Assembly (NCBI GenBank): GCA_017403825.1
Contig: JAFRDO010000010.1
Coordinates: forward strand, 20,401-84,400
DNA length: 64,000 bases
DNA from: Kiritimatiellia bacterium
GTDB taxonomy: Bacteria; Verrucomicrobiota; Kiritimatiellia; RFP12; UBA1067
Direction of reading: 5' to 3'
The notes beneath the pieces are model-generated. The model saw nothing but the letters and a program-made list of their open reading frames with translations, had not been told where the DNA came from and did no database searches. Every line of letters begins with the position of its first letter. The stretch's first letter is position 1. Made by a program: the position numbers and the translations under genes. Of the stretch, positions 3,897 to 59,133 are shown in pieces.

Positions 3897-4054
3897 CGGC
3901 AAGCCGATGTTGACCGCCATCGCTGCCTGACGAGAGGTCGTCTCCGATGCCATAAAAGAGAGCTTGTCAGAAACGGATGCCATAGCCTCCTTGCTTGATG
4001 TAAGGGCGAGATGGGCTCGCCATAAAATCCACAAGCAGAAAGTGAAGGTGCGCC

Positions 4055-4546: not shown

Positions 4547-4575
4547 CAAAACGAGTACGGCCGAGGCATGCGAGC

Positions 4576-4611
4576 CCCCGTCGGAAACGACGGGGCTTTG
4601 CTTCAGCCTTT
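4576..4611 (+). terminator. Rho-independent terminator downstream of 4055..4546
   Basis: A perfect 8-bp stem CCCCGTCG / CGACGGGG with a GAAA loop (4576-4595) is followed by a T-rich tract (CTTTGCTTCAGCCTTTT). Confidence 0.5.
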
Positions 4612-4727
4612 TGAACGCCTGAAGGATCGGGAACTGCATGCGCCGGCATAATGCAAAATGAGCCGCACCGCTTGAACAATGGCATGCGAATGTTGTATAA
4701 TGAGCGCCACACGAAGGACTGGGAATA

Positions 4728-5552: not shown

Positions 5553-5587
5553 GCGCTCGCACTCAGGTAAAACAAGGGAGAATCATC

Positions 5588-6340
5588 ATGCTGAACGACT
5601 ACGGATACATCGACAAGGCGATAGCCAATATCAAGGAAGTCGCCGATAAGCAGGAGGCCAACATCAAGGCCGCAGCGACCCTGATGGCTGATGCGATCGC
5701 CGCCGACAAGCTCATCAACGTCTATGCGGGCGGCGGACACACCACGCTCGCGATGGGAGAGATGTTCTTCCGCGCCGGCGGCCTCGCCAACATCAACCCA
5801 ATGATGGAAACCGCGCTTTCAGTCTTCAACCAGGCGCTCAAGTACCTTGAGCTGGAACGTACCGTAAACTTCGGCGCATCAATAGTGAAGTACTACGGTC
5901 CGAAGGAAGGCGACGTCGTTCTCTTCTTCCACAACATCGGCATCAATCCGGCGACGATCGACGCCGCCGAGGAGTGCAAGAAGCGCGGCTGCAAGATCAT
6001 CGCCGTCGCCTCGTCGTACTGGCAGAACGAAATGCCGAAGGACCACTTCATCCGCCACCCGAACGGCAAGAACCTCTTCGACTATGCGGACGTCTGCATC
6101 GACGACTACAACCCAGTCGGCGATGCGGTGGTGAACGTTCCCGGCATGACGACGCCCATCGGCCCCGTCTCGAACGTAGTTGACTTCACCATCGCCCACC
6201 TTCTCGAGATCGAGACATGCCGCCAGTGCGTCGAGCGCGGCATCGTGCCACCGGTCTGGAACTCGGCCAACGCCCCCGGCGGCGACGAGAAGAACGCAGC
6301 CTACCTCGCGAAGTACAAGCCGCTCGTGAAGTGTCTGTAA
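5588..6340 (+). CDS. SIS-domain protein (UPF0309-like sugar-phosphate isomerase/binding fold)
   Basis: The ATG at 5588 has an AAGGGAG RBS; the longer track ORF 5177.. overlaps the EEP gene. The 'VYAGGGHTTLAMGE' and 'AVASS' patterns fit a SIS fold. It is paralogous to 39191..39892. Confidence 0.65.
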   Translation: MLNDYGYIDKAIANIKEVADKQEANIKAAATLMADAIAADKLINVYAGGGHTTLAMGEMFFRAGGLANINPMMETALSVFNQALKYLELERTVNFGASIVKYYGPKEGDVVLFFHNIGINPATIDAAEECKKRGCKIIAVASSYWQNEMPKDHFIRHPNGKNLFDYADVCIDDYNPVGDAVVNVPGMTTPIGPVSNVVDFTIAHLLEIETCRQCVERGIVPPVWNSANAPGGDEKNAAYLAKYKPLVKCL

Positions 6341-6376
6341 CCGCTCATCAAGTGTCTGTAAACAGGAGAACGAAAA

Positions 6377-23245: not shown

Positions 23246-26200
23246 GTGAAGAAACTGGCGGTAATGATGGCTGCGCTTGGCGCGCTAGCGGCGATTGCCG
23301 ACGGCGGTGGCGCCGCTGCAAAGGACAATGTGGAGCTGCTGCCTTCAGCCTTCGACGGCAAGACGCCTGTCGTCGTCGAGACCGATGCGTTCAGGCTCGT
23401 CATCAATCCAGATGCGACGGCGCAGTCGCTTGTCATCAAGGCGACAGGCGAGGAATGCCTGGCGTCCAAGGCGGGGCTGCCAGTGTTCGCATCCGTCCAG
23501 AAGCGTCCGTTCAACAACGAGACGCGCCTGGTGCAGATGGCCAAGCGCACGATGTACCCCGCCAACCGCATCAGGCGCGACGGCGACATCTTGCGCATCG
23601 GGTTCGACACCGCGCCCTACGAGGTGGAGGTACGCGTCCGGGAGCGGGCAGGCTACGCCGCGTTCGAGCTCGTGCGGCTGATCTCCAACACCGTGCAGGA
23701 GAAGCAGTACGGAGGACTGGAGCCGTGGCAGATGGACGTGCCGCCAGTCGAGGAGTTCAGGCTCCTCCAGCTGCCGGTCATCGAGCGCAAGAACTTCGGC
23801 GACTGGCTGAACGTGGAGTGGGACGACCGTGCGGCGGTGGCAGTGGTCGGTGCGACGCCCTACATGGACGTGGATCACGAGAAGCGCGGCGACTGGCGGC
23901 TGCTGCGTGCGGACGCGCTCTCCGGCATCGGCCACGGCATCACGAACGGCGTTGCGGCAATCGCCGCCGGAGCCAGCAAGGATGAGCTCCTCGCGCAGAT
24001 CGAGGCGATGGAGAACGACTATGACCTGCCGCGCGGTGTCGCAAGCCGCCGCAATCCCCTTCTCAACGCCTCCATCTACTGGACGAGCGACATCTCCGTA
24101 CACAACGTCGACGAGCATGTCGCCAACATGAAGAAGGGCGGCTTCCGCATGGCGCTCCTCTACTATTCCGGCATGTTCCTGAACGGACACGCCTACACGA
24201 ACTACGGTGACTACGATCTCAATCCCGAACGTTTCCCAAACGGCTACGACGACCTCAAGGTCGTTCTGGCGAAGATCAAGGCCGCCGGCGTCACGCCCGG
24301 CTTCCACACGCTCCAAACCTTCATCGGCTTCAAAAGCCGCTACGTGACGCCGGAAGCCGATCCGCGACTCAACGTGAAGCGGTATTTTGCACTGGAACGG
24401 CCCTTGCCTGGCGATGGCGCAACTTGCGACGTATATGTGGCGCAGAACCCGGTCGATGCGCCGATGCACCCGAAGTGCCGCGTACTCAAGTTCGGCACGG
24501 AGCTGATGCATTACGAAAGCTACACCACAACGCCTCCTTACAGGTTCACCGGCGTGGAACGCGGCTACTTAGGCACGACCGTCAAGTCGCACGGGCGCGG
24601 CGACGGCGGCGGCATCCTTGACGTGTGCGAATGCACGGCTACAAGCTGCTGCATCGACCAGAACACGTCCCTTCAGGACGAGATCGCCGAGAAGATCGCG
24701 AAGGTCTACGACTGCGGCATGGAGTTCCTCTACTTCGACGGCTCCGAGGACGTGAACGTGCCCTGCAACGTGAACATCTCCCTTTCGCAGTGGAAGGTTG
24801 CCAAACATTGCGGGAAGATGCCGCTTTTCACAGAAGGCTGCGCGAAGACGCACTTCGGCTGGCATCTCCAGAGCGGAGCGAACGCCTTTGACGTGTTCCC
24901 ACCGGAGGTGTTCAAGGAGAAAATCATCGAATATCCGTACAAGGCGGCGCAGCGTCTGGCGAAGGATTTTACTCGTGTCGATTTCGGGTGGTGGGGAATC
25001 CGCGCCAAGGGTCCGAAAAGCGTAGGCACGCAACCTGACATGTGGGAATACGGCACGTCCAAGGCGGCAGCGTTCGACTGTCCGGCGACGATGCAGATGA
25101 ACCTTCACCGCATCCATGCGAACGGACGCATGGACGATCTCTTCGAGACCGTACGACGCTGGGAGGACGTGCGTGCGCGGAAGTGGCTCACGCCGGAGCA
25201 GAAGGAAATGCTGAAGGATCCGAAGCGCGAGTTCCACCTCTACCTGAATGATAAGGGCCAATATGAACTGGTAGAATGGAATCAGCTTGACGTGGCCGGC
25301 GGCAAGTGGACGGACGTGCGGGCCTTCATTTTCGAGCGCAACGGACGACGCGTCGTCGCCTACTGGCATGTTCACGACCGCGCACGCCTCGTCTTCGCCG
25401 AGCCGCTGGACGGCACGGAGTTCCTCGATGCCTCCGGCGTGAAGTATTTCGAGACATCGCTTCCGGCCGAGACCGTCCGCGCCGCCTTCGCCTCCGCCGC
25501 GGTTCATGGAATTCCCACTGACCGACGCATCGAGATATACGGCTTTTTTGATGACAATGACGGACACATCCAGGGGATGTGCACCGACGGAGAATTCATC
25601 TACCTCACCCAACAGAGCTGGATATACAAAGTCGACCGCCAAGGCAAGCTGGTGCGCAAGATAAAGACGCCAAAGCACACCGGCGACGTCTGCTTTCACG
25701 ACGGGCGGATATACGCTTCGAGCATCCACTACTACGGCGAGTATCGCGGGCATGGCATCATAAGGGTTTATGACACCGACCTGAATCTCCTGAAGGAGAA
25801 GATGCTTGAGAAGTGCGGCCTTGACGGCATCACGTGGCTCGACGGCTACCTCTACGTCGGCGGCGGAGCGCACAAGCCGACCATCCCGCACAAGCCGGGA
25901 GAGGCGCCGGAAACGAAGACTCCTCACTTCGACAACAATCTGTTCAAGGTCGATCCGAACACGCTTGAAATCGTCGAGCGCTATGTGCTGAACCACGGCA
26001 CGAAGACATGCTATGGGATTCAGAACGCGACGACGGACGGAAAACTCCTCTACTTCTGCTACTACGTGCCCGGACGTAACATCCCCAACTGCATCGTCTA
26101 TGACAAGAACATGCACGTCGTGCGGACCCTGACGTTCGAGGCTGGCAAGGGCTCAGATTTCGGACAGGGCTTTGACTTCGTCGGCGCCGTCCCGGGCGGG

Positions 26201-28318
26201 AACAGATTCCTCCGCGTTACGACACAAAACGCATGGGTGAGGAACCGCAGGCCAGAGGATGTGTTCACCGCCATCGTGGAGACTGTTGAAATCAGAGATT
26301 CGGACGTGCCGCCGCGGCACGTCCCGAAGCGCATCATGGGCCGCGACTACTGGCCTGCCCTTTACAGGTACCGCGACTGGCTGCCAGACGCCAAATACGA
26401 CAACAGCGCCTTTGAGGTGCGGTTCGACAACCCCGACATCTTCAAGCTGCCCGCGTTCCGCGACGCGGTTCCCGTCTACTGGGCACGCAACGATCCGCCG
26501 CCAATTGATGGCGCAAGCGGCACGTGGCGGCGTTTTGCAGATAACTTCACGGCCACCGAACGTGATCGCGAGATCATCACCTCAAACCCCCTTCCTGACC
26601 GTCCGTTCCTTTTCGCGGCAACGGCCAAGCGTCAGTTCTGGACATGGGGCGCGGAATGCGACCTCGACTACGCCGACTTCGCCGACTGGCGGACGCGGCA
26701 TCCTAACGCCCTCTACAGCGGCACGATCCTCGAATGGGACAACGACCTGATGCTTGCCTACCGCCGCATGGCAAGCATGACAAACACGGCGCGCCGGGCG
26801 GAGGTCGAAGCGCTGATCGGAAAGAGCCCCCCGAAGACGCGCGAGGAGCGGATGGACGTGATGCGACGGCACTATGCCGACCGCCACAAGGCGGCTTACG
26901 GCGACAAGATGGCAGTACACGCCTCTCACGTGTTCAGCCAGCACTTCGGCGGCGACTGCGGCGCGGACATGCTTGTCGTCGAAACGACCAACTCGTCCGG
27001 CAGCCCGACCAGCGACTCCGAATACCGCTGGAACCTCGCCCCGATGTTCGTCCGCGGCGCAGCGCGTCAGTTCGACCGTCCGTGGGAATGGTACTGGGCC
27101 GCCTACATGAACGGCTTTCGCACGAACGGTGAATGGCACAATGACGCCGCCTGCAGATATCCCATAGGCCCATCCGCCAAGAATGGGTCCGGAGCAATCA
27201 ACCGTCCGGAATACGGCGTCTCCGGCAACCTGATGCGCCGTCTCTACTACTTCTCATACCTGAACGGCGCGAACATCACGCAGCCCGAGGAATGGTCCGC
27301 CTACTTCCTCACCTGGGACGATGCCGCGGGCAAGACCGTGCTTACCTGTCGCGGACGCGACTACGCGGCCTACCACGATTTCACCGTGAGGAATCCAGGA
27401 CGCGGCACGCCCTATACTCCTATCGCCATCTGCATTCCCCTTTCGCGCGGTTATACGGCCTTCGGAGGCTGGCCGTGGGCGGAAAAAGGTTATGGCTACA
27501 CGCGGAGCGACTTGATGTCAGATGCTGTGTTATTCTCGCTCGTCCCAGGCTTCGAGCGGGCAAAGGCGATGAAGGCTGGCGTCGAGACGAATCTTCACAA
27601 CTCGCGCTTCGCCCAGATGTACGACGTGATTTGTCCCGACGCGCCAAGCCAGTCGGCAGAGACGGCACTTGACGTGATGAAGAGCTACAAGGCCTTGATC
27701 ATAGCCGGCGAGTTCGCCGATCCCAAGGTCGCCCAATGTCTCGCCGAATACGAGAAGAGCGGCGGACGGGTAATTATGTTGTCGGATGACATTCTCCAAG
27801 ATCGGTCTGTTTTAACCACAGATTACACCAAAGACACGGAAAGACATAATGGAGGAAACAGCAATTCCGTGTGTTCCATGTCTTCCGTGGTAACACGGCA
27901 AATGAAAGCGGGGAAAGTGAGTTTCCCCAAGATCGAGTCGATTCTTGAAAACCTTCAGAAGGACTATTTCCCATTCAAGGTCGAAGGCGACTGCCTGTAC
28001 GGCGCAAACCGCACGGAGGGCGGATGGTGGCTGTGGGTGTTCAACAACAAGGGTATCACAAAGTTCACCGACGCACCGCATACCATTGACCATTCGTTCG
28101 ATGCCGACATTACGGTGTCATGCGCGAAAGACAGCATCACAACAGCAAAGGAACTGCTGGCGGAGAAGCCAGTGCCAATCGTGGAAGGCAAATTCAAGTA
28201 TCGCATAGCAGCAGGCGACCTCGCCGTATTCGAGGTGAACACCGCTACGCAAAACCGAATGTTCAGCGCAAAGGAACATGACCGCGAAGCCTACATTGTG
28301 CAGGTCAGACGGTTTTGA
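23246..28318 (+). CDS. Giant secreted multidomain protein (1690 aa): N-terminal module, uncharacterised TIM-barrel-like catalytic-type domain, embedded HxQGMC domain, and a large C-terminal uncharacterised region
   Basis: A GTG start follows a GGAAGGAG RBS and leads into a signal peptide. The frame is open and uninterrupted for 5 kb. An internal segment around 25525-26150 is homologous to the stand-alone HxQGMC proteins. A segment around 24100-25000 is homologous to the central domain of 28396..33825. Confidence 0.7.
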   Translation: MKKLAVMMAALGALAAIADGGGAAAKDNVELLPSAFDGKTPVVVETDAFRLVINPDATAQSLVIKATGEECLASKAGLPVFASVQKRPFNNETRLVQMAKRTMYPANRIRRDGDILRIGFDTAPYEVEVRVRERAGYAAFELVRLISNTVQEKQYGGLEPWQMDVPPVEEFRLLQLPVIERKNFGDWLNVEWDDRAAVAVVGATPYMDVDHEKRGDWRLLRADALSGIGHGITNGVAAIAAGASKDELLAQIEAMENDYDLPRGVASRRNPLLNASIYWTSDISVHNVDEHVANMKKGGFRMALLYYSGMFLNGHAYTNYGDYDLNPERFPNGYDDLKVVLAKIKAAGVTPGFHTLQTFIGFKSRYVTPEADPRLNVKRYFALERPLPGDGATCDVYVAQNPVDAPMHPKCRVLKFGTELMHYESYTTTPPYRFTGVERGYLGTTVKSHGRGDGGGILDVCECTATSCCIDQNTSLQDEIAEKIAKVYDCGMEFLYFDGSEDVNVPCNVNISLSQWKVAKHCGKMPLFTEGCAKTHFGWHLQSGANAFDVFPPEVFKEKIIEYPYKAAQRLAKDFTRVDFGWWGIRAKGPKSVGTQPDMWEYGTSKAAAFDCPATMQMNLHRIHANGRMDDLFETVRRWEDVRARKWLTPEQKEMLKDPKREFHLYLNDKGQYELVEWNQLDVAGGKWTDVRAFIFERNGRRVVAYWHVHDRARLVFAEPLDGTEFLDASGVKYFETSLPAETVRAAFASAAVHGIPTDRRIEIYGFFDDNDGHIQGMCTDGEFIYLTQQSWIYKVDRQGKLVRKIKTPKHTGDVCFHDGRIYASSIHYYGEYRGHGIIRVYDTDLNLLKEKMLEKCGLDGITWLDGYLYVGGGAHKPTIPHKPGEAPETKTPHFDNNLFKVDPNTLEIVERYVLNHGTKTCYGIQNATTDGKLLYFCYYVPGRNIPNCIVYDKNMHVVRTLTFEAGKGSDFGQGFDFVGAVPGGNRFLRVTTQNAWVRNRRPEDVFTAIVETVEIRDSDVPPRHVPKRIMGRDYWPALYRYRDWLPDAKYDNSAFEVRFDNPDIFKLPAFRDAVPVYWARNDPPPIDGASGTWRRFADNFTATERDREIITSNPLPDRPFLFAATAKRQFWTWGAECDLDYADFADWRTRHPNALYSGTILEWDNDLMLAYRRMASMTNTARRAEVEALIGKSPPKTREERMDVMRRHYADRHKAAYGDKMAVHASHVFSQHFGGDCGADMLVVETTNSSGSPTSDSEYRWNLAPMFVRGAARQFDRPWEWYWAAYMNGFRTNGEWHNDAACRYPIGPSAKNGSGAINRPEYGVSGNLMRRLYYFSYLNGANITQPEEWSAYFLTWDDAAGKTVLTCRGRDYAAYHDFTVRNPGRGTPYTPIAICIPLSRGYTAFGGWPWAEKGYGYTRSDLMSDAVLFSLVPGFERAKAMKAGVETNLHNSRFAQMYDVICPDAPSQSAETALDVMKSYKALIIAGEFADPKVAQCLAEYEKSGGRVIMLSDDILQDRSVLTTDYTKDTERHNGGNSNSVCSMSSVVTRQMKAGKVSFPKIESILENLQKDYFPFKVEGDCLYGANRTEGGWWLWVFNNKGITKFTDAPHTIDHSFDADITVSCAKDSITTAKELLAEKPVPIVEGKFKYRIAAGDLAVFEVNTATQNRMFSAKEHDREAYIVQVRRF

Positions 28319-28395
28319 TATACTTCGGCATAGATAATAACGATTGGACTTGTAAATTGAGAAGTGACGAACGAGGATTAACTCTTCGCCTTGCG

Positions 28396-31300
28396 ATGAG
28401 TCTTGCCTTGGCGGCTGGCCTCGTCAGCGGAGCGGAGGAGCTGCGCTTGCCAGGTGAAGACGGAACGCATGTGGCGGCCTCGTGCGCACCCTTTCCAGAC
28501 GCCCTGAGCGCGTTCGTCTGGCGCAACTGGCCGGTGGTGTCCGTCGCGCGCATGGCAAAGGCCGTCGGAGCGGAACCGTCCGCGCTGGAGGCGATAGCCC
28601 GTGAGATGTCGCTTCCCGTACCCCAGCCGCCAGTTTCGCCCCTCTGGCGACGCAAAGGCTACATCACGGTCGTCAAGCGCAATTGGCATCTCCTTCCGTA
28701 CGACCAGCTGCTGACGATGACGGACATGACGCGCAAGGAACTCGCCTACTCCCTCGTCGAGGACGACTTCCTGTTCAGCAAGCTCGGCAACACAAAGCCG
28801 CTCTGCGCACCGGTCGTCTGCACAGAGGAGACGGCGGCGAAAGGCCGTGCGCAGCGCCGCTGGATCGCAAAAACGCTGAAGGAAGAGGGAGTCGTGCCGA
28901 TGGCGCCGGAGGAACCGCGCTTCCGTTTCATCGAAGAGCTGTCGGCCATGCCGTCGCACGACGCACACCCGCCCGCCGCGCAGTCCTCGTTCGACCTGCG
29001 GCTCATCTTCTCGTACTTTGCGGACTACGGCGATCCTCTCGGCGACGATGCGGTCGGTTCGTATCCGGATGGGCTTCTCGCGCGTCTCGCCGACAGCGGC
29101 GTGAACGCCGTCTGGCTGCATACCGTGCTGTCGACGCTCGCCAAGGATCCGCTCTACCCAGAGTTTGGCGACGGCTCGGAGAGGCGCATCGCCAACCTGC
29201 GCACGCTCGTCGCACGGGCGGCGCGCCACGGCATCAAGGTGTATCTCTACGTGAACGAGCCGCGCGCGCAGGACGACGCCTTTTTCGAGAAACCTGGCCG
29301 TCTGGAGATGCGTGGCGCCAGGCGACAGTCGGGCGGAAGCGGCTACGCACGCTGCACGTCGCATCCAGAAACGCGCCGCTGGCTGCGCGACTCGCTGCGG
29401 CAGGTATTTTCGCAGGTACCGGGCCTGGGCGGCGTATTCACGATCACGATGAGTGAGAACCTCACCAACTGCGCCTCGCGGTGGAAACGCGAGACATGCC
29501 CGCGCTGCAAGGATCGAAGGGTCGGAGACATCGTGGCCGAGGTGAACCGCACCATCTGGGAGGGCGTGAAGGCTGGCGATCCGAATGCAGAGGTCATCGC
29601 ATGGGACTGGGCGTGGCCGAAGGACGAGCGCACGTCCATCGTCGCACAGCTGCCGGCCGGGTCGTGCCGAATCATGTCCGTAAGCGAGATAGGCATGCCT
29701 TTCGTGCGCGGCGGCGTCACGTCCGAAATCAACGAGTACTCCCTTTCGACGCCGGGACCGAGCGACCGTGCGAAGGCTATCTGGGCGGCGGCGAGCGCAC
29801 ACGGGATGAAGACGGCAGCGAAGGTGCAGGCCGCGCTCACCTGGGAAATGAGCGCCGTGCCATATCTGCCGGTCATGGATATCGTCTCCGAACACGCGCA
29901 CAACCTGATCGATAACGGCGTTGACGGCGTGATGCTCTCCTGGTCGCTAGGCTCCGCGCCGACGCCAAACCTTGCCGTCTACACAGACTGCCGCCGAGGC
30001 GAGGAGCCCGGCGCAGTGCTCGACCGCCTCGCGGAACGGCTCTACGGACGTACAGGAGTCGCAGCGGCACGGGCCGCGTGGACCGCCTATTCCGACGGCT
30101 TCCGGGAATACCCGTTCAACATATCGTCCGTCTACTGCGGAAACCACACGCTCGGACCTGCCAACCACCTTTATGCGGAGCCGTCCGGCTGGACGGCCTC
30201 GATGGTGGGCTATCCTTTCGACGACCTGAAACGGTGGCGGGCGATTTTCCCCGAAGACGTTTGGCTAACGCAGATGGCGAAGGTACGCGATGGGTTCAAG
30301 AAGGGAAATGCGGCGTTCGAGGGCCTCGTCGCGTCACTGACCGGCGAGCGGCGGACGGCAGCAGAACGCGAGCTTGGACTCTTCCGCGCGATCGAAAACC
30401 ATTTCTGCGCCGTTGTCGACCAGGGGATGTTCGTGATGGCGCGCGAAAAAGGCAACAAGGCCGAGATGATCGCCTGCGCCCGCCGCGAACTTGAAACGGC
30501 ACGGAAGCATCTCGACCTAGTGCGCGCCGACAGCCGCATAGGATACGAATGCTCCAACCACTACTTCTACATTCCGCAAGACATCATCGAGAAGATGCTG
30601 AACTGCCGAGATGCCATTGCCAGGCTTACCGGAAACACAGGTACGGACACGCCAATCGCGGCGACGTGGTCTACGGACGACTTCGACCTTTCGCTCGCAA
30701 CCAACGGTTGCCTTGTATCCCTGAAGGAAAAGGAGACAGGGCGCGAACTCCTGCGCTGGAAGGGAAAGTTCGCCTCTGTCGTGGCCCAGGACGGCCGGGA
30801 GACGAAGGTCTCTTCTGTAAGCCGCGACGACGACGGACGGTTACACCTCTCCTTCGACGGCATGGACGGCGAGGCGGTGATGTCCGTCCGCGCCACGCAT
30901 TGGGGACTCGTCTTCACTGCGGAACGCCTGACCGTGCCGGACGCAAAAGAGTTCAAGTTCCTTATCGTCTATCCCGTCTGCCGGACGTACAACGGCTCGA
31001 TGATGAACGCCATGAGCGACGACGAATCGGCCGTCGTGCTGCGCACCTACGAGCTCGCGGCGGACATGCGCAACCGCGGCAACACAGTGCTGGAGGCCGT
31101 GGCGGAGGTCGCGGCGCATCCGCCGGCCCTGCCGTCGCGCGCCGCGCTAGTCGCCGCGCCACGTCGGCAAGTCCTCTTACGGATGAAGGAACTGACGCGC
31201 GATGCCGGAATCCTGTCGTCGCCCTGCGGCGGCGCATGGAGCCTGGAGGCTCCGGAGAACCGCGAGTCATACATCATCGGCAGCGTATCGCGGGAGTCCG

Positions 31301-33825
31301 CCGAGGACTGGATCGCTCTCGCCGAACGCGGCGGCTTCCGGACGGTCAGCTTCTACGACTGGTGGAAGACGCTCGGACACTACGACGCCGAGCCTAAGAA
31401 GTTCCCGCGCGGCGATGACGACATATGCGAGACGATTGCCATGCTCCATGCGGCCGGTCTCAAGGCCGGGATGCACACGCTGACTGCGGGTATCGACTTC
31501 CAAGACGCCTGGACGCGCCCCGTCTGCCATGCTGACCTGCTCGTAACCCACGCCTACACGCTCGCCAGGCCGTTCTCTGACGGCGACACGGAGATGGTCG
31601 TGAACGAGGCGCCGGGTCCGCGCCACCATCTCGTGACTTCATTCCTCTCGAACGGCAACATCCTGCGCGTCGGAGGGGAACTTTTCACTTACGCCGGGAT
31701 TCGCGGCGACGCCGCGCCGTATGCGTTCACGGGCGTGAAGCGCGGGGCCTATGGCACGACAAGGGGCAGCAACATTCCCGCCGGTACGCGCGTGGAGTAT
31801 CTCTTCCAGCACTTCTACTCGTTCTTCCCGGAGCCGTCGTCGCCGTTCATGGACACTATGGCCGCGCACCTCGCCGCGCGCTACCGGCAGCTCGGCTTCG
31901 ACTTCGTATACCACGATGGCGCGGAGCCGATGAGTCGCTACAACGTGGATCTGACGCGGCGGAAGTTCGCCGCCGCAATCGACCAGTCAGAACGTCCGCT
32001 GCAGGTGGAGGCAAGCGTCGGCGGCGCGCACAGCTGGTGGTTCCATTCGCGTCTCGGCGCCTGGGATCATCCGCGCTGGGCGCTCAAGAGCTTCCACGAC
32101 CGCCACCTCGCGTACTGCCGCGACCAGGTCGTCAAGGCAGAAATGCTTGCGCCTCAGGTCGGCTGGTGGTCGGTGATGAAAGCTGACGGTTCGGTGCGCG
32201 GAAGCTTCACGGACGAGTCGGAATACTTCGCCTCTCGGAACGCTGGCGAGGACTTCGCGATGTCGCTGACCGGGGTGAACGTGTCCAAGGGGCCGCTTGC
32301 GTTCTCGGTGGAGCGGCAGACCACGATAATCGGACGCTACGAACGTTTCCGCCTCGCCCGGGCGTTCACTGCCGAGGCGATGGAGCGGATGCGTCAGCCG
32401 GGCGCGGAGTTCAGGCTCGCACAGGGCGCGGACGGAATCTGGACGCTGACACCCGCCGCCGTTGCAACGCACCGGGCGACGGCAGACTTCCGCCTCTGGT
32501 CGTTTGATGCACCCCAAGCCGGAAAAAGCGCACTGCGAGTCGAGGCGCTGTACAAAGCGGGCGATGAGGGCGAAACGCTTATCGGACCGCTCGATGCGGC
32601 CAACCTCAAGACGTCTGCGGCGGAGAAGGTGTCGGTTGCGGTAACGACGGCGCACGACACGGAAATGGGCGACGTGCTCGTTTTACGGGCGGAGAACCAT
32701 GGTGATGCACGGCGCGGCGCATGGGGCGGCGCTGGGCTCGCCTACGGCCATCCCTACCGCAACGTTACTGGCGGACGGCAGGACATGGGGAAGGCGTTCG
32801 GTTTCTGGGTTAAGGGCGACGGTTCGGGTGCCGTGCTCGACTTCCGAATCACGTCGCCGCGCATACATAACGCCGGGCAGTCCGATCACTTCGTGACACT
32901 GGACTTCACAGGCTGGCGGCGTGTGAACGTGCTGTTGCGCGAACGCGACGCCGCGCGTCATGCTTCGCTCGCCTGGCCGGGGCAACGCACCGGGCACAGC
33001 ATACTGTACATGACCTACAGAGACCTTGTGACCCCGGAGCGTATAGAGAAGATCGAATTCTTCCTGAACGAGATTCCAATCAACAGCGTTGCAGAGGCCG
33101 TAATCGCGCCCGTCCGGGCTATGTCGACCGCGAAAGGACGCGTGGACGCGGCAACTGTCGTCGTGAACGGCATCCGCCATGCTGTGCCATTCGCCTTGGA
33201 GTCCGGGGAGTACGCGGAACTGGAAAAGGACGTGTGGACGCGCTATTCGGAGGCTGGAGAGCCGATGGAGGAATCTGCGGGTGCGGAACCGGTTGCACTC
33301 GCTGCCGGAGCAAACGAATGCCGGTTCGAAGCAGCGGACGCAGGGGCCCGGACGGAAGTGACCCTTGTCGCACTCGGACGCCCGTTCTCCGCGCTGAAGC
33401 CGCTTGACTCTTTGCCGGCTGCAGATCGAAAGACCCTCGACTACGAGGCACTCGATCCCATCGTGTATTGTCCGGCGAAAGGATTGGCGCGTCCGTTCGG
33501 GATCGCGGCGAGGCCCGGCGAAACGGCACGACTCGAGGTAGAAATCCTAGGACCGGTGAAGACACCGGCGCTGGAGTTCCGTGTGCGCGGCGCGGAGACG
33601 AAAGTATGCTCGTTCATAACGGATCTGGAAGCGAACGAAAAACTCATCTGCCGCAATGGCAAGGAGTGGAAGGTTGTAAAGGACTTCAAGACGGTACGCG
33701 TCGGCACGTTGGAAAAACCGATTCCAGAAGTATCGGGATTCGTCGGCGTGCGCGTGCGGAGTGCCAATCCGTCGTCGGCACACGCACGCGTAAACCTCGT
33801 GAAGCGCTATGACAGAGGCAATTGA
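28396..33825 (+). CDS. Giant secreted multidomain protein (~1810 aa): N-terminal TIM-barrel hydrolase-like domain ('YVNEP', CPRC) plus a central domain homologous to the giant protein 23246..28318
   Basis: The start was chosen at the ATG at 28396, giving MSLALAAGLVSG. A TTG at 28357 would give a more canonical signal peptide, and the annotated ORF begins at 28315. The frame is open for 5.4 kb. The shared block 'PY.FTGV.RG.YGTT ... F.YHDGAEP' matches the upstream giant protein. Confidence 0.7.
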   Translation: MSLALAAGLVSGAEELRLPGEDGTHVAASCAPFPDALSAFVWRNWPVVSVARMAKAVGAEPSALEAIAREMSLPVPQPPVSPLWRRKGYITVVKRNWHLLPYDQLLTMTDMTRKELAYSLVEDDFLFSKLGNTKPLCAPVVCTEETAAKGRAQRRWIAKTLKEEGVVPMAPEEPRFRFIEELSAMPSHDAHPPAAQSSFDLRLIFSYFADYGDPLGDDAVGSYPDGLLARLADSGVNAVWLHTVLSTLAKDPLYPEFGDGSERRIANLRTLVARAARHGIKVYLYVNEPRAQDDAFFEKPGRLEMRGARRQSGGSGYARCTSHPETRRWLRDSLRQVFSQVPGLGGVFTITMSENLTNCASRWKRETCPRCKDRRVGDIVAEVNRTIWEGVKAGDPNAEVIAWDWAWPKDERTSIVAQLPAGSCRIMSVSEIGMPFVRGGVTSEINEYSLSTPGPSDRAKAIWAAASAHGMKTAAKVQAALTWEMSAVPYLPVMDIVSEHAHNLIDNGVDGVMLSWSLGSAPTPNLAVYTDCRRGEEPGAVLDRLAERLYGRTGVAAARAAWTAYSDGFREYPFNISSVYCGNHTLGPANHLYAEPSGWTASMVGYPFDDLKRWRAIFPEDVWLTQMAKVRDGFKKGNAAFEGLVASLTGERRTAAERELGLFRAIENHFCAVVDQGMFVMAREKGNKAEMIACARRELETARKHLDLVRADSRIGYECSNHYFYIPQDIIEKMLNCRDAIARLTGNTGTDTPIAATWSTDDFDLSLATNGCLVSLKEKETGRELLRWKGKFASVVAQDGRETKVSSVSRDDDGRLHLSFDGMDGEAVMSVRATHWGLVFTAERLTVPDAKEFKFLIVYPVCRTYNGSMMNAMSDDESAVVLRTYELAADMRNRGNTVLEAVAEVAAHPPALPSRAALVAAPRRQVLLRMKELTRDAGILSSPCGGAWSLEAPENRESYIIGSVSRESAEDWIALAERGGFRTVSFYDWWKTLGHYDAEPKKFPRGDDDICETIAMLHAAGLKAGMHTLTAGIDFQDAWTRPVCHADLLVTHAYTLARPFSDGDTEMVVNEAPGPRHHLVTSFLSNGNILRVGGELFTYAGIRGDAAPYAFTGVKRGAYGTTRGSNIPAGTRVEYLFQHFYSFFPEPSSPFMDTMAAHLAARYRQLGFDFVYHDGAEPMSRYNVDLTRRKFAAAIDQSERPLQVEASVGGAHSWWFHSRLGAWDHPRWALKSFHDRHLAYCRDQVVKAEMLAPQVGWWSVMKADGSVRGSFTDESEYFASRNAGEDFAMSLTGVNVSKGPLAFSVERQTTIIGRYERFRLARAFTAEAMERMRQPGAEFRLAQGADGIWTLTPAAVATHRATADFRLWSFDAPQAGKSALRVEALYKAGDEGETLIGPLDAANLKTSAAEKVSVAVTTAHDTEMGDVLVLRAENHGDARRGAWGGAGLAYGHPYRNVTGGRQDMGKAFGFWVKGDGSGAVLDFRITSPRIHNAGQSDHFVTLDFTGWRRVNVLLRERDAARHASLAWPGQRTGHSILYMTYRDLVTPERIEKIEFFLNEIPINSVAEAVIAPVRAMSTAKGRVDAATVVVNGIRHAVPFALESGEYAELEKDVWTRYSEAGEPMEESAGAEPVALAAGANECRFEAADAGARTEVTLVALGRPFSALKPLDSLPAADRKTLDYEALDPIVYCPAKGLARPFGIAARPGETARLEVEILGPVKTPALEFRVRGAETKVCSFITDLEANEKLICRNGKEWKVVKDFKTVRVGTLEKPIPEVSGFVGVRVRSANPSSAHARVNLVKRYDRGN

Positions 33826-33869
33826 CTAGTTCTCCAGCTCAATATAACTCGCATAAAAGGAACATATCA

Positions 33870-36800
33870 ATGACAAAGTTGAAGATTTCAATAATTTGCT
33901 TGCTTTTTGCGATTTGGGGACAGTCCCCACAAGTTTGGGGACAGTCCCCGGCTGAGACCACGGCAGCGGTTTGGGGACAGTCCCCAACGGCGGTGGCGCA
34001 GGCGGAGTTTGAGAAGTATTACTTGGCGGTGACGGGCAAGGCCGCGCCGCAGGATGCCGTGACATTCGCCATTGACCCCGCCATGTCAAAGACCGGCAAG
34101 GACGCATATTCAATCGTGTCCTGCGGCAAAGGCGTGAAAATCACGGGCTCGAACGTGCGGAGCGTTCTCTATGGCGTGTACGACCTTCTGGAAAAGCGGG
34201 CTGGGTGCCATTGGTTCTGGGATGGCGACATCGTGCCGAAACGCGAGACTATCAACCTCTCTGGCCTGGACATCCATGAGGAGGCGCACTTTGAGTACCG
34301 GGGGCTCCGCTACTTCGCGCATCGGGGCCTTACGCGCTTTCAGGCCGAGCACTGGGGATTCGAGGACTGGAAGAAAGAAATCGACTGGATGCTCAAGCGG
34401 CGGCTGAACGTGTTCATGCTTCGCATCGGGCAAGATGACCTTTTCCAACGGACCTTTCCGGACATCTGTGGCTATCCCGATCCGTCCAAGGACCTTCCCG
34501 GTGCTGGGGAAGGCTACGACAACCGCACGCTATTCTGGAGCCTCCAATACCGAGGCGAACTGCGTCGGCGCATCCAAGCGTATGCGTTCGAGCGGGGGCT
34601 GATGGCGCCGGAAGACTTCGGCACGATGACGCACTGGTATTCGCGCACGCCTGAGGATTTCCTGGAGACGATGAATCCGCCGTTCCTGCCGCAGTCGACA
34701 AGCGGCTATGCGGAGCGGAACGGACTTGTCTGGGACGTTCGCGAAGATAAATGGGCGGACGAATACTGGAAGCTCACGAAGACTGCCGTGGATGCGTACG
34801 GGAAAGGCGCTCCGCAACGGCTTCTGCACACGATTGGCCTTGGCGAGCGCCGCTGCTACACTAACCGTCAGGACAACTTCAATCTCAAGGTCGAAGTCCT
34901 GGACAAGTTCCTAGCCCGCGCGCACCGCGACTATCCGGACGCCAAGGTTCTGCTCGCCGGCTGGGACTTCTACTTCACTTGGTTTCCCGAAGAAGTGCGT
35001 GCGCTCGTTGGACGGCTAGACCCTAAACGCGACATCATCTGGGACTACGAGGGCGATGCCACGCGCGACTGGCGCAAGGAGATGCAAGGACTCAACAACA
35101 ACTTCACCAAGTGGGGAGTCGTCGGGAAGTTCCCCTACACCTATTCCATCTTCCTTGCCTACGAATCGGCCCTTGACACGCGCGCGAACTATCCGCTAAT
35201 CGAGGAGCGGCAGAAGATAGTCCAGAACGACCCGGCTTGCGTCGGCTACGTCTTCTGGCCCGAGGCAAGCCATACCGATACGTTGTGCCTCAGGTACTTC
35301 ACTGCAAACGCATGGGCCAACGAGGCGGTGCCGCACGGAAAGGTTCTGGACGAATTCTGCGCAAGCCGCTACGGCGCCCTTGCCGGGCAGATGAAGGCAA
35401 TTTGGGAAAAGGCGTTGCCAGCATCGATGCTGCGCGACTGGGACGCGAACTACGGGAGGCTGATCACTGGAAGCGGCGAAAGCCTTCCGCCGTGCGACGA
35501 GAAGACACTGGCGGCGTGGAAGCAACCGGTCGAAGTCGCCAGGACAGTATTCGGGGAACTTGCCGACATTCCGTGGGCGGATGACTTTCTCCGGCGCGAC
35601 ACCATTGACATCGCCCGCATGGTGCTTGACCGCGTCATTACGTTGCGAACGTTCGAGTTGAGCCGGGACGTCGCCGCGTGGCGAGACGGTATGGACGCAC
35701 AGGCCAATTCCCTCCCTGAGAGGGCGAAGAGCCTCGCCGCGCTCTGCGACAAGATGGCCGATCTTTTGGAACTGCACACCGACTATTCGCTCTGGGAATC
35801 GTATCTTCGCCTTGATGCGGTGGAGAAAGTGCGCAATCCCGACTTCCCGAAGACGCTCCTCGACAACGCCTCCTGCAGCTACTGCCGCAGCCACCAGTAC
35901 GAACTGGCGCGGCACTGGTATGCGCCGCGCATGGAGAAGATGGCGTTGCGCCTAGCGGACGCCATTGCCTCCGGAGACCGCAACGTCAAGCTGTTTGACG
36001 ATCGCAACGCGGAGCGCCGCGCGCTCCTGGCCCGTCCGCTGGAGTCGCTCAAGCCAGTGCAGCCGCGCACGTGGGACCGCTATCGCGAGACCCTGCGCAC
36101 AATCGGCACGCAAGTTTCCGCTCCCGACGCGCTCCATGCGCGAACGACGCGCCTGCACGAGGGCATCCCATCCGTCGAGGTGTCGCCTAAGAACGGACGC
36201 ATCTGGGTGACATGGTACGGAAGCCCTACTGGCGGCGAAGACTCAAACAACTATGCCGTCCTGGCCACGAGCGCTGACGGCGGCGACACGTGGAAAGAGG
36301 TCGCCGTTGCGGATCCGGACGGCGACGGGCCTGTCCGCGCGTTCGATCCTGAGATATGGATTTCGCCTGACGGGAAACTCCGCTGGTTCTGGACGGAACG
36401 CGTTGCGCCGCTTGCGGCAGAAGCGAAGAACCGCAATGCCGGCTGCCTTGCCTCCCCCACGAACGATGTCCTGATGATGGCGGTCTTCAACAATGCCGAA
36501 GACGAACCCGATCCAAAACATCTGCCGGTCTCAAGGAAGATAGCGAGAGGCATAATGATGACCAAGCCGATCGTCTCACCGGACGGCGATTGGCTGTTCC
36601 CGATCGCCAACTGGTTCGAGGCTCCTTCTGGCAACGTCTGGGCCTCGTCCGATCGCGGCGGCACTTTGCGACTTGTCGGAGGCGTGACGCTGCCGAAAAA
36701 CGAACGCCTGTTTGACGAACACAACATCTATTTCACGAAAAGCGGAAAGCTTGCCTGCTGGTCGCGCACCAGGACAGGATGGATGCATGCATTTTCGACG

Positions 36801-37187
36801 GACGGCGGACGGACTTGGGGCGTGGCGGGATGTCCGAGCGGAACGAAACACACCTCTTCGCGGTTCGTCATCAAGCGGCTCTCGAGCGGCAATCTTCTCT
36901 TGATCAAGCATGGGAAAATGGACGAAGACATCGGCCGCGCCATGCTGACGGCCTACGTCTCGCTAGATGACGGCAAGACATGGAAAGGAGGGCTGCTGCT
37001 CGATGCGCGGAAAAGAACATCGTATCCAGATGCCGTCCAGACGCCTGATGGCGTCATACATGCCGTTCATGACTTCGACCGCATGGGCAAGCGCCACATT
37101 CTCTATTCCACTTTCACTGAGGCGGACATTCTCGCCGGACATGACGTTTCCGGCAAGTGCAGGCTTTCCAGGCCTGCCAACGAATAG
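33870..37187 (+). CDS. GH89 alpha-N-acetylglucosaminidase (NAGLU family) fused to a C-terminal BNR-repeat sialidase-like beta-propeller
   Basis: The block 'EHWGFEDWKKEIDWMLKRRLNVFMLRIGQDDLFQRTF' parallels the NAGLU '[35 protein letters not shown]' core, and the TIM barrel and C-terminal helical domain are collinear. Three BNR motifs (SADGGDTW, STDGGRTW, SLDDGKTW) lie in the last ~330 aa. The start is the ATG at 33870, which has an AAAGGA RBS. Confidence 0.75.
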   Translation: MTKLKISIICLLFAIWGQSPQVWGQSPAETTAAVWGQSPTAVAQAEFEKYYLAVTGKAAPQDAVTFAIDPAMSKTGKDAYSIVSCGKGVKITGSNVRSVLYGVYDLLEKRAGCHWFWDGDIVPKRETINLSGLDIHEEAHFEYRGLRYFAHRGLTRFQAEHWGFEDWKKEIDWMLKRRLNVFMLRIGQDDLFQRTFPDICGYPDPSKDLPGAGEGYDNRTLFWSLQYRGELRRRIQAYAFERGLMAPEDFGTMTHWYSRTPEDFLETMNPPFLPQSTSGYAERNGLVWDVREDKWADEYWKLTKTAVDAYGKGAPQRLLHTIGLGERRCYTNRQDNFNLKVEVLDKFLARAHRDYPDAKVLLAGWDFYFTWFPEEVRALVGRLDPKRDIIWDYEGDATRDWRKEMQGLNNNFTKWGVVGKFPYTYSIFLAYESALDTRANYPLIEERQKIVQNDPACVGYVFWPEASHTDTLCLRYFTANAWANEAVPHGKVLDEFCASRYGALAGQMKAIWEKALPASMLRDWDANYGRLITGSGESLPPCDEKTLAAWKQPVEVARTVFGELADIPWADDFLRRDTIDIARMVLDRVITLRTFELSRDVAAWRDGMDAQANSLPERAKSLAALCDKMADLLELHTDYSLWESYLRLDAVEKVRNPDFPKTLLDNASCSYCRSHQYELARHWYAPRMEKMALRLADAIASGDRNVKLFDDRNAERRALLARPLESLKPVQPRTWDRYRETLRTIGTQVSAPDALHARTTRLHEGIPSVEVSPKNGRIWVTWYGSPTGGEDSNNYAVLATSADGGDTWKEVAVADPDGDGPVRAFDPEIWISPDGKLRWFWTERVAPLAAEAKNRNAGCLASPTNDVLMMAVFNNAEDEPDPKHLPVSRKIARGIMMTKPIVSPDGDWLFPIANWFEAPSGNVWASSDRGGTLRLVGGVTLPKNERLFDEHNIYFTKSGKLACWSRTRTGWMHAFSTDGGRTWGVAGCPSGTKHTSSRFVIKRLSSGNLLLIKHGKMDEDIGRAMLTAYVSLDDGKTWKGGLLLDARKRTSYPDAVQTPDGVIHAVHDFDRMGKRHILYSTFTEADILAGHDVSGKCRLSRPANE
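33913..33997 (+). repeat. Three copies of the perfect 13-bp palindrome GGGGACAGTCCCC (flanked by TTT / TTTG) within the first 45 codons of the GH89 gene, encoding WGQSP x3
   Basis: This is directly visible at 33915-33927, 33936-33948 and 33983-33995. Each copy is self-complementary around a central A. Confidence 0.7.
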
Positions 37188-58074: not shown

Positions 58075-58102
58075 CGGAGAACTCCTTTGGACGAGGGAGC
58101 GT

Positions 58103-58263
58103 GATGACGTGAGAGACATGTGGGACGCGAGAGACGCGAGGCAGAGATGGCGTGAGTGACAAGGGGGACGCGAGAGACGCGAGGGCTCTCGCCTCTCATG
58201 TCTCTCACGTCCCTCATGTCATTAGCCATCTCGTCTCTCACGTCTCTCACGCCCCTCTCGTCA
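58103..58263. repeat. Composite repeat element: an inverted arm (58103-58183) plus a direct arm (58184-58263) built from degenerate 9-mers (CTCTCAYGT / ACGTGAGAG); the direct arm is identical to 59054-59133
   Basis: An 80-bp identity (GGCTCTCGCCTCTCATGTCTCTCACGTCCCTCATGTCATTAGCCATCTCGTCTCTCACGTCTCTCACGCCCCTCTCGTCA) is found at both loci. An exact 15-bp inverted repeat GACGTGAGAGACATG / CATGTCTCTCACGTC is present. Confidence 0.8.
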
Positions 58264-59121
58264 CCCGGCTCGAACGAACGGCCGCGTTCCGTTGCAATGC
58301 GGATAGTCGCAACAGCTCCAGAATGGTTTCCCGGCGTTTCGGCCTTTGCGCGCGACCATCTTTCGCATTGGTCCTCCACAATCGGGGCACTCCGGCGCGG
58401 CAACGGCGTCCTTCGCATCGCGCGCCGCCAGCCGAACCCGCGAAAGTCGCTCGGTGAAGCCGCCCTCTTCGGTGAAGGCGTCGCCTATCGCAAGCATCTG
58501 CTTGTGCAGAAGTCCACAGGCCCGGTCGATCACAATCAGCAAGGAGTTCGCCGCAACAATTGGGTCTTCGGCTTCAAGATGCGGCGCAAAGCGATTGCGC
58601 ATCTCCAAGATGTATTCGCCGTAGTCATGGCGGGACAAAGGCCCACCGTAGGGGTCAATGACGAGTGACGAGAGAGAGGAGTGACGCGGATCAGACGGCG
58701 ACCACGGTGCAACACCAGCGTCGACAAGGAACGCCTCGTAGTCGCCGGCAAGTTCTTCAAGCGAAGCCTTGGCCACATCATAGAGACGAAGCTCGGTCTC
58801 CTTCGAGGTCCCGGACCTGGAAGAGCCTTCAACGATATTCTGCCGCGCCGACCGCGCTGCGCCGACCATCTGCCCTGTAGTCTTGCCTAGCGCGTCGTTC
58901 TTGTAGTCGTAGTTGCGACGGCAGAAGAGCGTCGTGGCATGGTAAATGAGACACACATATCCGAAAGTCAGCGTCTTGCGATAGCCACCATACGCGCCAA
59001 TGATGCGCGACGATGTGGACGATTGGCGGACGGAGAAGGCGCGAGCGGCGTGATGGCTCTCGCCTCTCATGTCTCTCACGTCCCTCATGTCATTAGCCAT
59101 CTCGTCTCTCACGTCTCTCAC
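58261..59121 (-). CDS. Four-helix-bundle protein (23S rRNA intervening-sequence protein family, TIGR02436-like) fused to a C-terminal topoisomerase-type C4 zinc ribbon
   Basis: The core 'YKNDALGKTTGQMVGAARSARQNIVEGSSR...SLEEL' matches the 4HB family signature (QLRRAA.SI..NIAEG). The C-terminal 'CPDCGGPM...GKPFWSCCDYPHCNGT' matches the zf-C4_Topoisom pattern. The start lies inside the repeat, with a GTG at 59121 and ATGs at 59100, 59088 and 59070. Confidence 0.55.
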   Translation of the reverse strand: MRDVRDEMANDMRDVRDMRGESHHAARAFSVRQSSTSSRIIGAYGGYRKTLTFGYVCLIYHATTLFCRRNYDYKNDALGKTTGQMVGAARSARQNIVEGSSRSGTSKETELRLYDVAKASLEELAGDYEAFLVDAGVAPWSPSDPRHSSLSSLVIDPYGGPLSRHDYGEYILEMRNRFAPHLEAEDPIVAANSLLIVIDRACGLLHKQMLAIGDAFTEEGGFTERLSRVRLAARDAKDAVAAPECPDCGGPMRKMVARKGRNAGKPFWSCCDYPHCNGTRPFVRAG

Positions 59122-59133
59122 GCCCCTCTCGTC
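59054..59133. repeat. Second identical copy of the 80-bp repeat arm, abutting the secretin stop codon and containing the start codons of the 4HB gene
   Basis: This is a direct observation. It is identical to 58184-58263. Confidence 0.8.

Follow-up and report, generated by a model that had tools for sequence, protein, structure and literature searches.

An in-frame cluster of 13-nt palindromes in the signal-peptide linker of a Kiritimatiellae GH89 gene, probably of REP type

The stretch of DNA analyzed here, which we call the window, comprises 64,000 nucleotides (64 kb) from a Kiritimatiellia bacterium (contig JAFRDO010000010.1, positions 20,401 to 84,400), and our subject is a group of three short palindromes near the start of one of its genes. 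This gene (33870 to 37187, plus strand) is an open reading frame (ORF) for a GH89, or alpha-N-acetylglucosaminidase-like, enzyme with a BNR/sialidase-like part, in which Pfam recognizes NAGLU_N, NAGLU, and BNR_2. The GH89-BNR protein is identical to NCBI entry MBQ3288069.1 (1105 residues, from a Kiritimatiellae metagenome-assembled genome [MAG]), and the start codon agrees. A Shine-Dalgarno-like AAGGA can be read from the sequence at 33857 to 33861 on the plus strand, 8 nt before the ATG at 33870; its placement supports this start, and the repeats are therefore coding. The N terminus, MTKLKISIICLLFAIWGQSPQVWGQSPAETTAAVWGQSPTAVAQAEFEKYY, opens with putative signal-peptide n- and h-regions (MTKLKISIICLLFAIW; 33870 to 33917, plus strand), as judged from the translation and from homologs with a comparable short hydrophobic N terminus. 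It continues into a variable linker (residues 15 to 44; 33912 to 34001, plus strand), delimited by homolog N termini, allele alignments, and a codon table. Flanked by the hydrophobic core on one side and by the conserved AEFxKYY with which the enzyme begins on the other, the linker holds the three repeats and their fast-evolving spacers.

Three copies of the 13-mer GGGGACAGTCCCC are present in the window, all on the plus strand (33916 to 33928, 33937 to 33949, and 33973 to 33985). TTT precedes every copy, giving the 16-mer TTTGGGGACAGTCCCC at 33913 to 33928 (copy 1, read [I]WGQSP), 33934 to 33949 (copy 2), and 33970 to 33985 (copy 3, which lies in an extended palindrome, TTGGGGACAGTCCCCAA, at 33971 to 33987). 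An earlier, sequence-only reading of this DNA had described three perfect palindromes in a fixed context within the N-terminal coding region, and the exact 13-mer with its TTT bears this out. The positions it gave (33915 to 33927, 33936 to 33948, and 33983 to 33995) are off by 1, 1, and 10 nt, although the span it gave, 33913 to 33997, contains all copies. The 13-mer is a 6+1+6 inverted repeat with an unpaired central A, and its reverse complement differs at the center. Counted from the A of the start codon (33870), the cores begin 46, 67, and 103 nt downstream and together span 46 to 115 nt. They are spaced 21 nt (copies 1 and 2) and 36 nt (copies 2 and 3) from start to start, and the intervening spacers of 5 nt (33929 to 33933) and 20 nt (33950 to 33969) are unrelated in sequence. 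Copies 1 and 3 share the 21-nt context GCGrTTTGGGGACAGTCCCCA. A single reading frame passes through all three copies and encodes W-G-Q-S-P three times, just after the hydrophobic stretch ISIICLLFAI, as had been claimed.

Such a group is not expected from the composition of the window. Shuffled sequences predict 0.06 matches to the 13-mer with at most one mismatch in 64 kb, versus six counted over both strands, which are the three copies. No other 6+1+6 palindrome recurs within the window, and relaxed forms (GGGACAGTCCC with one mismatch, the 16-mer with three mismatches, and GGGNNCWGNNCCC) are absent from the rest of the 64 kb. Tandem Repeats Finder reported no array at the repeat locus, despite a copy number of three versus two between alleles.

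We compared the protein with its best 120 homologs, all of them from Kiritimatiellae-type metagenome bins. When orthologous GH89 genes are examined for WGQSP in this way, as the sequence-only reading had suggested, the threefold repeat is seen among the 120 only in P0001 (92% identity) and in the fragment P0006 (98% identity), and about 110 lack any array. Carriers are thus limited to members of the window protein's 90%-identity cluster and the P0006 fragment. In the remaining homologs a short signal peptide leads into a linker of variable length, after which comes the conserved (P)RAEFAKYY; since linker length varies across homologs, the repeats occupy the one N-terminal segment that this family leaves unconstrained. 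When the WGQSP segment was compared by HMMER with the whole library of 1.84 billion cluster representatives, no family sharing it was found, and the matches were unrelated low-complexity proteins and translated CRISPR arrays. A word-indexed search with the 40-residue repeat segment gave no candidates, missed the known orthologs too, and thus carries no information.

Among the carriers, three-copy alleles are found in the window, P0001, P0122, P0128, and P0006, and two-copy alleles, which lack copy 2, carry IWGQSPALWGQSPTAVAQ, and are 33 nt shorter, in P0123 and P0127. The 16-mer is invariant in 14 of 14 copies across five alleles and uses the same codons throughout, while the spacers differ by several substitutions and a 3-nt indel, and the base just beyond the core, the third position of the Pro codon, varies. 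According to the allele alignment, the two-copy allele is consistent with deletions between short direct repeats, and this derivation of the 33-nt difference fits slippage. Where copy 1 would stand, the sister clade (P0007 and P0131, 84% identity) carries TTTGGGGGCAAGCCGTTCC and TTTGGGAGCAAGTCGTCC, which look like decayed copies of the repeat. At fourfold-degenerate sites in four alleles, none of the six positions inside the cores is variable, versus 24.4% gene-wide, a difference that is not significant (p ~0.19).

At the RNA level, each copy is predicted to fold into a stem of 5 to 7 bp with a 3-nt loop (−7.9 to −9.6 kcal/mol), and copies 1 and 2 pair in a predicted composite hairpin of −27.1 kcal/mol (33914 to 33951, plus strand), 44 to 81 nt after the start codon. 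The sequence-only reading had placed one hairpin per copy 45 to 125 nt past the start; the predicted folding agrees with it, and the copies in fact span a slightly narrower interval, as given above. The minimum free energy of the whole leader is −64.4 kcal/mol versus −47.4 kcal/mol for shuffled sequences (z = −4.3), a stability that is due to the presence of the palindromic repeats. The composite structure lies beyond the initiation footprint and is absent from homologs and the sister clade.

The 13-mer is not peculiar to this locus. A scan for the 16-mer in one genome per GTDB species gave at least 120 loci, totaling 878 kb and sampled from 77 genomes. These loci contain at least 273 copies of the 13-mer with any central base and at least 263 with A or T at the center; at least 118 of the latter lack the preceding TTT and were therefore not selected by the 16-mer search pattern. 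Two or more copies are present in at least 70 of the 120 loci, close pairs with preferred spacings occur, and at least 43 of the 77 genomes are multicopy. The multicopy genomes belong to at least nine phyla (Actinomycetota, Bacillota, Planctomycetota, Kiritimatiellae, Pseudomonadota, Acidobacteriota, Myxococcota, Omnitrophota, WOR-3, and Elusimicrobiota). Across genomes, conservation ends about 3 nt outside the core, which often tips a longer, genome-specific hairpin: 23 of the 273 copies are central to perfect palindromes that reach at least 7 bp farther on either side, and perfect palindromes of up to 61 nt have the 13-mer at their exact center (L027, 17 to 77; L002, 4782 to 4834; and in L021, L045, L046, L096, and L101). 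The outer arms show compensating changes between related genomes (L021 versus L045). In most other genomes the copies are intergenic, some of them as terminator-like units of A-run, hairpin, and T-run, and the adjoining genes are unrelated to one another. With regard to miniature inverted-repeat transposable elements (MITEs), which have terminal inverted repeats of 15 to 30 bp around 70 to 300 bp and target-site duplications, Paratractidigestivibacter has palindromic units of about 110 to 200 nt with a core near each end (L052, 4636 to 4781); at the window locus none of that size is present, and no target-site duplication could be defined.

Individual matches have to be read with some care. 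The match in L022 was rejected as a repeat copy, as it encodes a native ThiC peptide (LGTVPVY) and arose by chance, and the singletons include such chance matches. A 1.2-kb stretch between inverted copies in L009 was likewise rejected as an insertion sequence; its ORFs look by inspection like rdgB and nagB. Rfam has no family at the motif in 18 motif-bearing loci, and a full-text literature search gave nothing relevant on the DNA string, on its peptides (WGQSP, GTVPK, and others), or on the motif, whether as an in-frame palindromic repeat or in Kiritimatiellae. With a three-copy query, BLAST found only stray short matches among PLSDB plasmids and INPHARED phages, the one in Ensifer being a single chance copy. 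In viral contigs a 17-mer form was counted 10 times, versus 1 and 5 for two composition-matched control palindromes, all near chance, which leaves that comparison indecisive; with viral counts at this level, the element is not phage borne.

Some arrangements of the core elsewhere may be recorded in their own right. In a Burkholderiales MAG (L079, 540 to 660), three cores and, next to them, two TTGTCCACA sequences resembling DnaA boxes lie upstream of a dnaB that contains an intein (Pfam DnaB, DnaB_C, and LAGLIDADG_3), and TTGTCCACA also adjoins one core copy in Limnohabitans (L061). In Bacillus and Neobacillus (L053, L072, L073, L074, L088, L091, L098, and L105), an inverted pair of cores surrounds a small GCGCTTTAGCGC-like hairpin (GGGGACAGTCCCCCGGCGCTTTAGCGCAACGGGGGACTGTCCCC) and is often followed by a T-run, in the manner of a terminator.

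One class of genes does recur beside the core. Clustering of the ORFs near the motif, all against all, singled out one small family that overlaps or abuts it in five loci and carries the Pfam domain Y1_Tnp, the IS200-like transposase domain; ABC transporters, kinases, and aminotransferases in the same neighborhoods proved to be chance neighbors. The five genes resemble those for REP-associated tyrosine transposases (RAYTs), REP standing for repetitive extragenic palindromic sequence. They belong to a Eubacterium (L016, 3414 to 4277, minus strand), a member of the Planctomycetota (L018, 3118 to 3753, minus), a member of the Eggerthellaceae (L046, 5616 to 6515, minus), and two members of the Lachnospiraceae (L058, 6228 to 7223, minus, and L062, 1870 to 2643, plus), and so to Bacillota, Actinomycetota, and Planctomycetota. 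Each has GGGGACWGTCCCC hairpins on both sides, within about 100 nt. As a genome has about one RAYT gene, the presence of five in 878 kb, each with the core on its flanks, is far above chance.

The identification of these genes rests on several comparisons. The best NCBIfam match of all five is NF047646, the REP-associated tyrosine transposase, over the full model and at 64 to 80 bits (cut-off 80), well above the IS200 model. Among solved structures, a profile of the five sequences matched best to Escherichia coli TnpArep (4ER8; E = 1e-7), above the TnpA of IS200/IS605; a search of the PDB with a single RAYT-like sequence gave no match, and the five-sequence profile was required. In the alignment of the five proteins, the HUH motif always retains its first His and the YxxxNP motif its Tyr. 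In L046 the second His of HUH is replaced by Asn (HVN), and this protein may be inactive. A single-copy RAYT flanked by the REPs that it is thought to disseminate is the layout known as the REPtron (PMC5581495; PMC3733652).

Closer to the source lineage, the core is multicopy in five other Kiritimatiellae MAGs, represented by L043 and L099 (one genome), L086, L093, L107, and L118. In L099, a gene identified by Pfam as a MurC-MurB fusion (3735 to 6362, minus strand) carries the core or close variants in frame at six places. They are read GDSP, GQSP, and GTVP, that is, in three reading frames, and are partly arranged as 21-nt tandem units. The core is free of stop codons in all six frames, where it reads G(D/T/Q/L)(S/V/C)P, or Gly-x-x-Pro, and all six readings are seen in ORFs. 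MurC-MurB proteins of this family range from 637 to 800 residues, with insertions confined to a few permissive loops and the C-terminal tail; another MurC-MurB lineage has different short repeats at the same loops. The gene in the 76%-identical relative L165 (10001 to 12292, plus strand) has orthologous arrays of GGGGACAGCCCC(T/C) in 10 copies, whereas the L099 arrays are GGGGAC(A/T)GTCCCC in 8 copies (any central base). Copies within one genome therefore share a genome-specific variant. On the evidence of these sequences we would call this concerted evolution, and we liken it to that of classical REPs with their RAYT. Every copy examined at the L099 and L165 loci lies within the MurC-MurB gene; the second locus of the L099 genome, L043, also carries copies of the core. 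The L099 gene also contains a second, nonpalindromic 13-mer (GGTGCCAGACTCC / GGAGTCTGGCACC), three times in tandem in each orientation (4130 to 4215 and 4555 to 4625), in frame and read CQTP and ESGT.

How do these observations compare with known repeat systems? REPs are spread by a single-copy RAYT of the HUH/Y1 type that acts on single-stranded DNA hairpins; REP, REPIN, and RAYT, together the REPtron, are reportedly the subject of work by Nunvar in 2010, Bertels and Rainey in 2011, and Ton-Hoang in 2012. The repeats described here share with that system the form of short G/C-rich hairpins occurring as singletons, close pairs, and clusters, an outer stem that is genome specific and homogeneous within a genome, and one Y1/HUH gene with the core on both sides in each of L016, L018, L046, L058, and L062. 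In contrast, our core is a perfect palindrome of 13 nt rather than an imperfect one of 20 to 40 nt, it has no GTAG/CGTC tag at the foot of the hairpin, and it occurs in at least nine phyla, whereas classical REPs are species or genus specific. The RAYT-like proteins score at or just below the NCBIfam equivalog cut-off (64 to 80 versus 80 bits), and the window copies differ from classical REPs in being intragenic rather than extragenic and in their low local density.

A minority of REPs is on record as intragenic (PMC3733652). Di Nocera et al. (2013) catalogued in-frame REPs that are often grouped, encode 20 to 30 or more residues, and are often N-terminal or inserted at multiple sites; they were judged neutral in linkers and loops, including those of housekeeping genes, and most were found in Opitutus terrae, a relative within the PVC (Planctomycetes-Verrucomicrobia-Chlamydiae) superphylum (PMC3733652). 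The earlier remark that it is unusual to find such repeats inside a signal peptide or pro-region was therefore overstated, as in-frame REPs near ORF N termini had already been catalogued there (PMC3733652). The window array agrees with those cases in its grouped, in-frame units near the N terminus, its linker site, and its PVC-superphylum host. It differs in that their repeats carry GTAG or CGTC tags, which the core here lacks, and in its host, a Kiritimatiellae MAG of the gut or rumen. Moreover, many of the N-terminal cases there may be misannotated starts, whereas the position here is coding beyond reasonable doubt because a signal peptide lies upstream of the repeats.

Two other kinds of palindrome bear a more distant likeness. 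Rickettsia palindromic elements (RPEs), reportedly described by Ogata et al. in 2000, are said to be about 100 to 150 bp long and confined to Rickettsia, and we know of no dedicated transposase for them. Like the present repeats, they are palindromic selfish DNA lying in frame in functional, even essential, genes at permissive surface sites; the unit here is a 13-nt core (16 to 21 nt with its context) in small arrays, which departs from RPEs in both size and host. The highly iterated palindrome of cyanobacteria, HIP1 (GCGATCGC), is hyperabundant genome-wide and thought to spread by substitution. It is likewise a short perfect palindrome in coding as well as intergenic DNA, whereas the array here is a clear insertion, of up to about 28 extra residues, and is locally rare.

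Taken together, we think it probable that the palindromes are an in-frame cluster of REP-type hairpins that expands and contracts locally and is tolerated as a passenger in the linker. The sequence-only reading had listed an in-frame insertion of a small repeat among its possibilities, and this one holds up: the array is lineage restricted, its copy number is polymorphic, and the 13-mer is dispersed elsewhere and flanks RAYT-like genes, all of which supports it. By analogy with REPtrons, at least one copy would have been inserted by a RAYT-like activity of the source lineage. The array would then have grown and shrunk through slippage or unequal recombination between direct repeats, and it would have persisted because an insertion rich in Gly, Pro, and Ser is presumably harmless in a linker that is cleaved off or flexible. 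The mRNA hairpin (−27 kcal/mol) would be a side effect at this locus and not a selected control element. The event is best described as one of a known kind, the in-frame REP; what is new is the repeat family, which has an untagged, perfect core of 13 nt and ranges over many phyla.

Several observations weigh against this interpretation. Neither the 64-kb window nor the other Kiritimatiellae DNA examined contains a RAYT-like ORF, and the link between the source lineage's copies and a RAYT is an analogy. Neither a target-site duplication nor an empty site was recovered for the array at the DNA level, and a single cluster in 64 kb is a density far under that of a classical REP family. The perfect conservation of the copies, as opposed to their apparent decay in the sister clade, could reflect selection at the locus. 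GTAG, CTAC, CGTC, and GACG are at or below background within 20 nt of 269 copies and have no preferred offset, and no GTAG/CGTC tag stands beside the three window copies; an untagged core may be mobilized differently from the described REP superfamilies. Finally, a control palindrome pair, GGGAGCWGCTCCC, which shares GGG..CAG..CCC with the motif and is not fully independent of it, was found at 18 metagenome loci, some of them with REPIN-like doublets or 21-nt tandem units. The clustering of G/C-clamped 13-nt palindromes is therefore no peculiarity of this core, and convergence among only 4^6 arms may account for part of its recurrence across phyla.

Other explanations give the array a function of its own. 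We consider three such functions (pausing device, operator array, functional peptide repeat) and rate each as unlikely. As a selected mRNA device, the hairpin region 44 to 115 nt into the coding sequence would slow early elongation or alter mRNA stability and thereby aid export or tuning, and a site just past the signal-peptide core would suit a pause. The strong fold of the leader and the perfect retention of the copies in five alleles, while the spacers drift, are what such a device would predict. Yet about 110 homologous GH89 genes with ordinary signal peptides do without hairpins, the palindromes have decayed in the sister clade, and a two-copy allele exists; the conservation of synonymous sites is not significant. 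The same core is found in loops and tails of the cytoplasmic MurC-MurB and in intergenic DNA of many phyla, and a core that recurs in such unrelated settings needs no locus-specific purpose to be present here. At this locus, a scan of 33500 to 34300 gave no terminator-like site on the plus strand, and no copy is followed by a T-run, so that the G/C-rich hairpin plus T-run of an attenuator or terminator is not what we find. The translational pausing or attenuation proposed earlier is not sustained, as nothing ties the hairpins to expression despite their z score, and we give this explanation a low probability. Multiple symmetric 6+1+6 sites with a free central base are typical of binding sites for dimeric proteins, and intergenic clusters of two to four copies occur elsewhere, as upstream of dnaB in L079; the array might thus serve a dimeric regulator as a roadblock or repressor of the GH89 operon, the second function suggested by the sequence-only reading. 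Here too the surroundings argue otherwise. A scan found no sigma-70-like promoter upstream on the plus strand, and the gap of 44 nt to the preceding gene suggests cotranscription with it. An operator array would be expected as promoter sites common to coregulated genes, but the 64 kb, rich in sugar-utilization genes, hold no further copy. The center-to-center spacings of 21 and 36 bp have no common helical phase, the copies in other genomes lie in unrelated gene contexts, and the RAYT-like family is the sole protein family that recurs beside the motif. We regard regulation of this kind as highly improbable, the least credible of the explanations considered.

Selection might instead act on the peptide, WGQSP serving as a linker or as a processing, glycosylation, or sorting signal to which the palindromy of the DNA is incidental. 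The amino acid repeat is indeed retained by every allele despite changes in the spacers, signal peptides are commonly followed by Gly/Pro/Ser-rich linkers, and the synonymous sites alone (p ~0.19) cannot show constraint at the DNA level. But none of the 1.84 billion cluster representatives shares the repeat with this segment, it is missing from orthologs less than about 90% identical, the codons are the same in all 14 copies, and the identical DNA core is read GDSP, GTVP, or GQSP in MurC-MurB and is noncoding elsewhere, which makes a selected peptide very improbable. A last possibility is a purely local tandem duplication, that is, a coding minisatellite with one origin by slippage and no relation to REPs or RAYTs, whose matches in other genomes are coincidental. 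The single cluster in 64 kb, the 21-nt unit together with the polymorphism of two versus three copies, the confinement of the examined copies in L099 and L165 to one gene, and the tendency of the control GGGAGCWGCTCCC to cluster, several times with 21-nt units, would all agree with it. Simple tandem duplication is at odds with spacers of 5 and 20 nt that are unrelated to each other, and coincidence with the exact core in five other Kiritimatiellae MAGs, at a second locus (L043) in the genome of L099, and on both sides of RAYT-like genes in five genomes; we doubt this origin about as much as that of an mRNA device.

Should the cluster be of REP type, as we favor, a wider proposal can be put forward as a speculation, one that we hold to be rather unlikely as a whole. 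In this proposal a distinct REP/RAYT lineage without a tag recognizes GGGGACWGTCCCC as its hairpin, has kept the same 13-nt core in at least nine phyla, and is currently active in gut and rumen Kiritimatiellae. Its stop-free Gly-x-x-Pro copies would survive in genes and remodel loops, tails, and signal-peptide linkers, among others those of MurC-MurB, an essential enzyme, and genome-specific variants would evolve in concert (GGGGACAGTCCCC in L099 versus GGGGACAGCCCCT at the orthologous sites of L165). If this were true, an enzyme would still be writing short peptide insertions into proteins, and the GH89 array would be one visible result.

For the GH89 locus itself the significance is small, since the array is most likely a harmless linker insertion; in annotation, the start codon should not be trimmed and no regulatory device should be read into the array. 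Interest is modest for this locus and somewhat greater for the repeat family. What the comparison adds is a REP family whose perfect, untagged core is unusually small, a gene-neighborhood link in several phyla between this core and a clade of RAYT-like transposases, and the tolerance of Kiritimatiellae for many such copies inside coding sequences. It offers a system in which to study how RAYTs recognize and spread hairpins outside the Proteobacteria and how selfish hairpin repeats shape protein linkers and loops.

The wider surroundings of the array gave some further observations. The gene neighborhood is a sugar-utilization cluster, syntenic with the loci of the homologs. Directly 5′ of the GH89 gene lie two very large ORFs on the plus strand, of 1690 residues (23246 to 28318) and 1836 residues (28315 to 33825); the second stops at 33825, 44 nt before the GH89-BNR ATG. 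The sole Pfam match in either is a subthreshold CBM_11 in the 1836-residue ORF. Among the control loci for GGGAGCWGCTCCC (L147 to L164), doublets flanked by A- and T-runs occur in several Ga0114945 contigs, and 21-nt tandem units occur in L147, L154, and L158; L153 and L155 look more like a repetitive protein gene.

In many GH89 homologs (among them P0010, P0013, P0014, P0032, P0079, and P0084), the loop after "DAYxIVS" bears in-frame insertions that vary. Their DNA consists of G/C-rich hairpins (such as GGGGCGGGCGTCCTCGCCCGCCCC, GGCGGGCAGCCCGCTGCCCGCC, and tandem 30-nt units) or repeats of the GTTTCG/GAAAC type (L124, 10200 to 10345; L126, 10255 to 10290). Those of L124 and L126 were rejected as multicopy families, as the hairpins are unrepeated within 22 kb. 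Farther along the window, at 58100 to 58270, lies an imperfect palindrome of about 170 nt made of GAGAGACG / CGTCTCTC and CATGTCTCTCACG units, the right half of which is duplicated 870 nt downstream (59057 to 59133). Similar CGTCTCTCG repeats encode an N-terminal extension (PRHVSRLSFLVRLTS) of the GH89 homolog P0078 (L126, 10001 to 10060).

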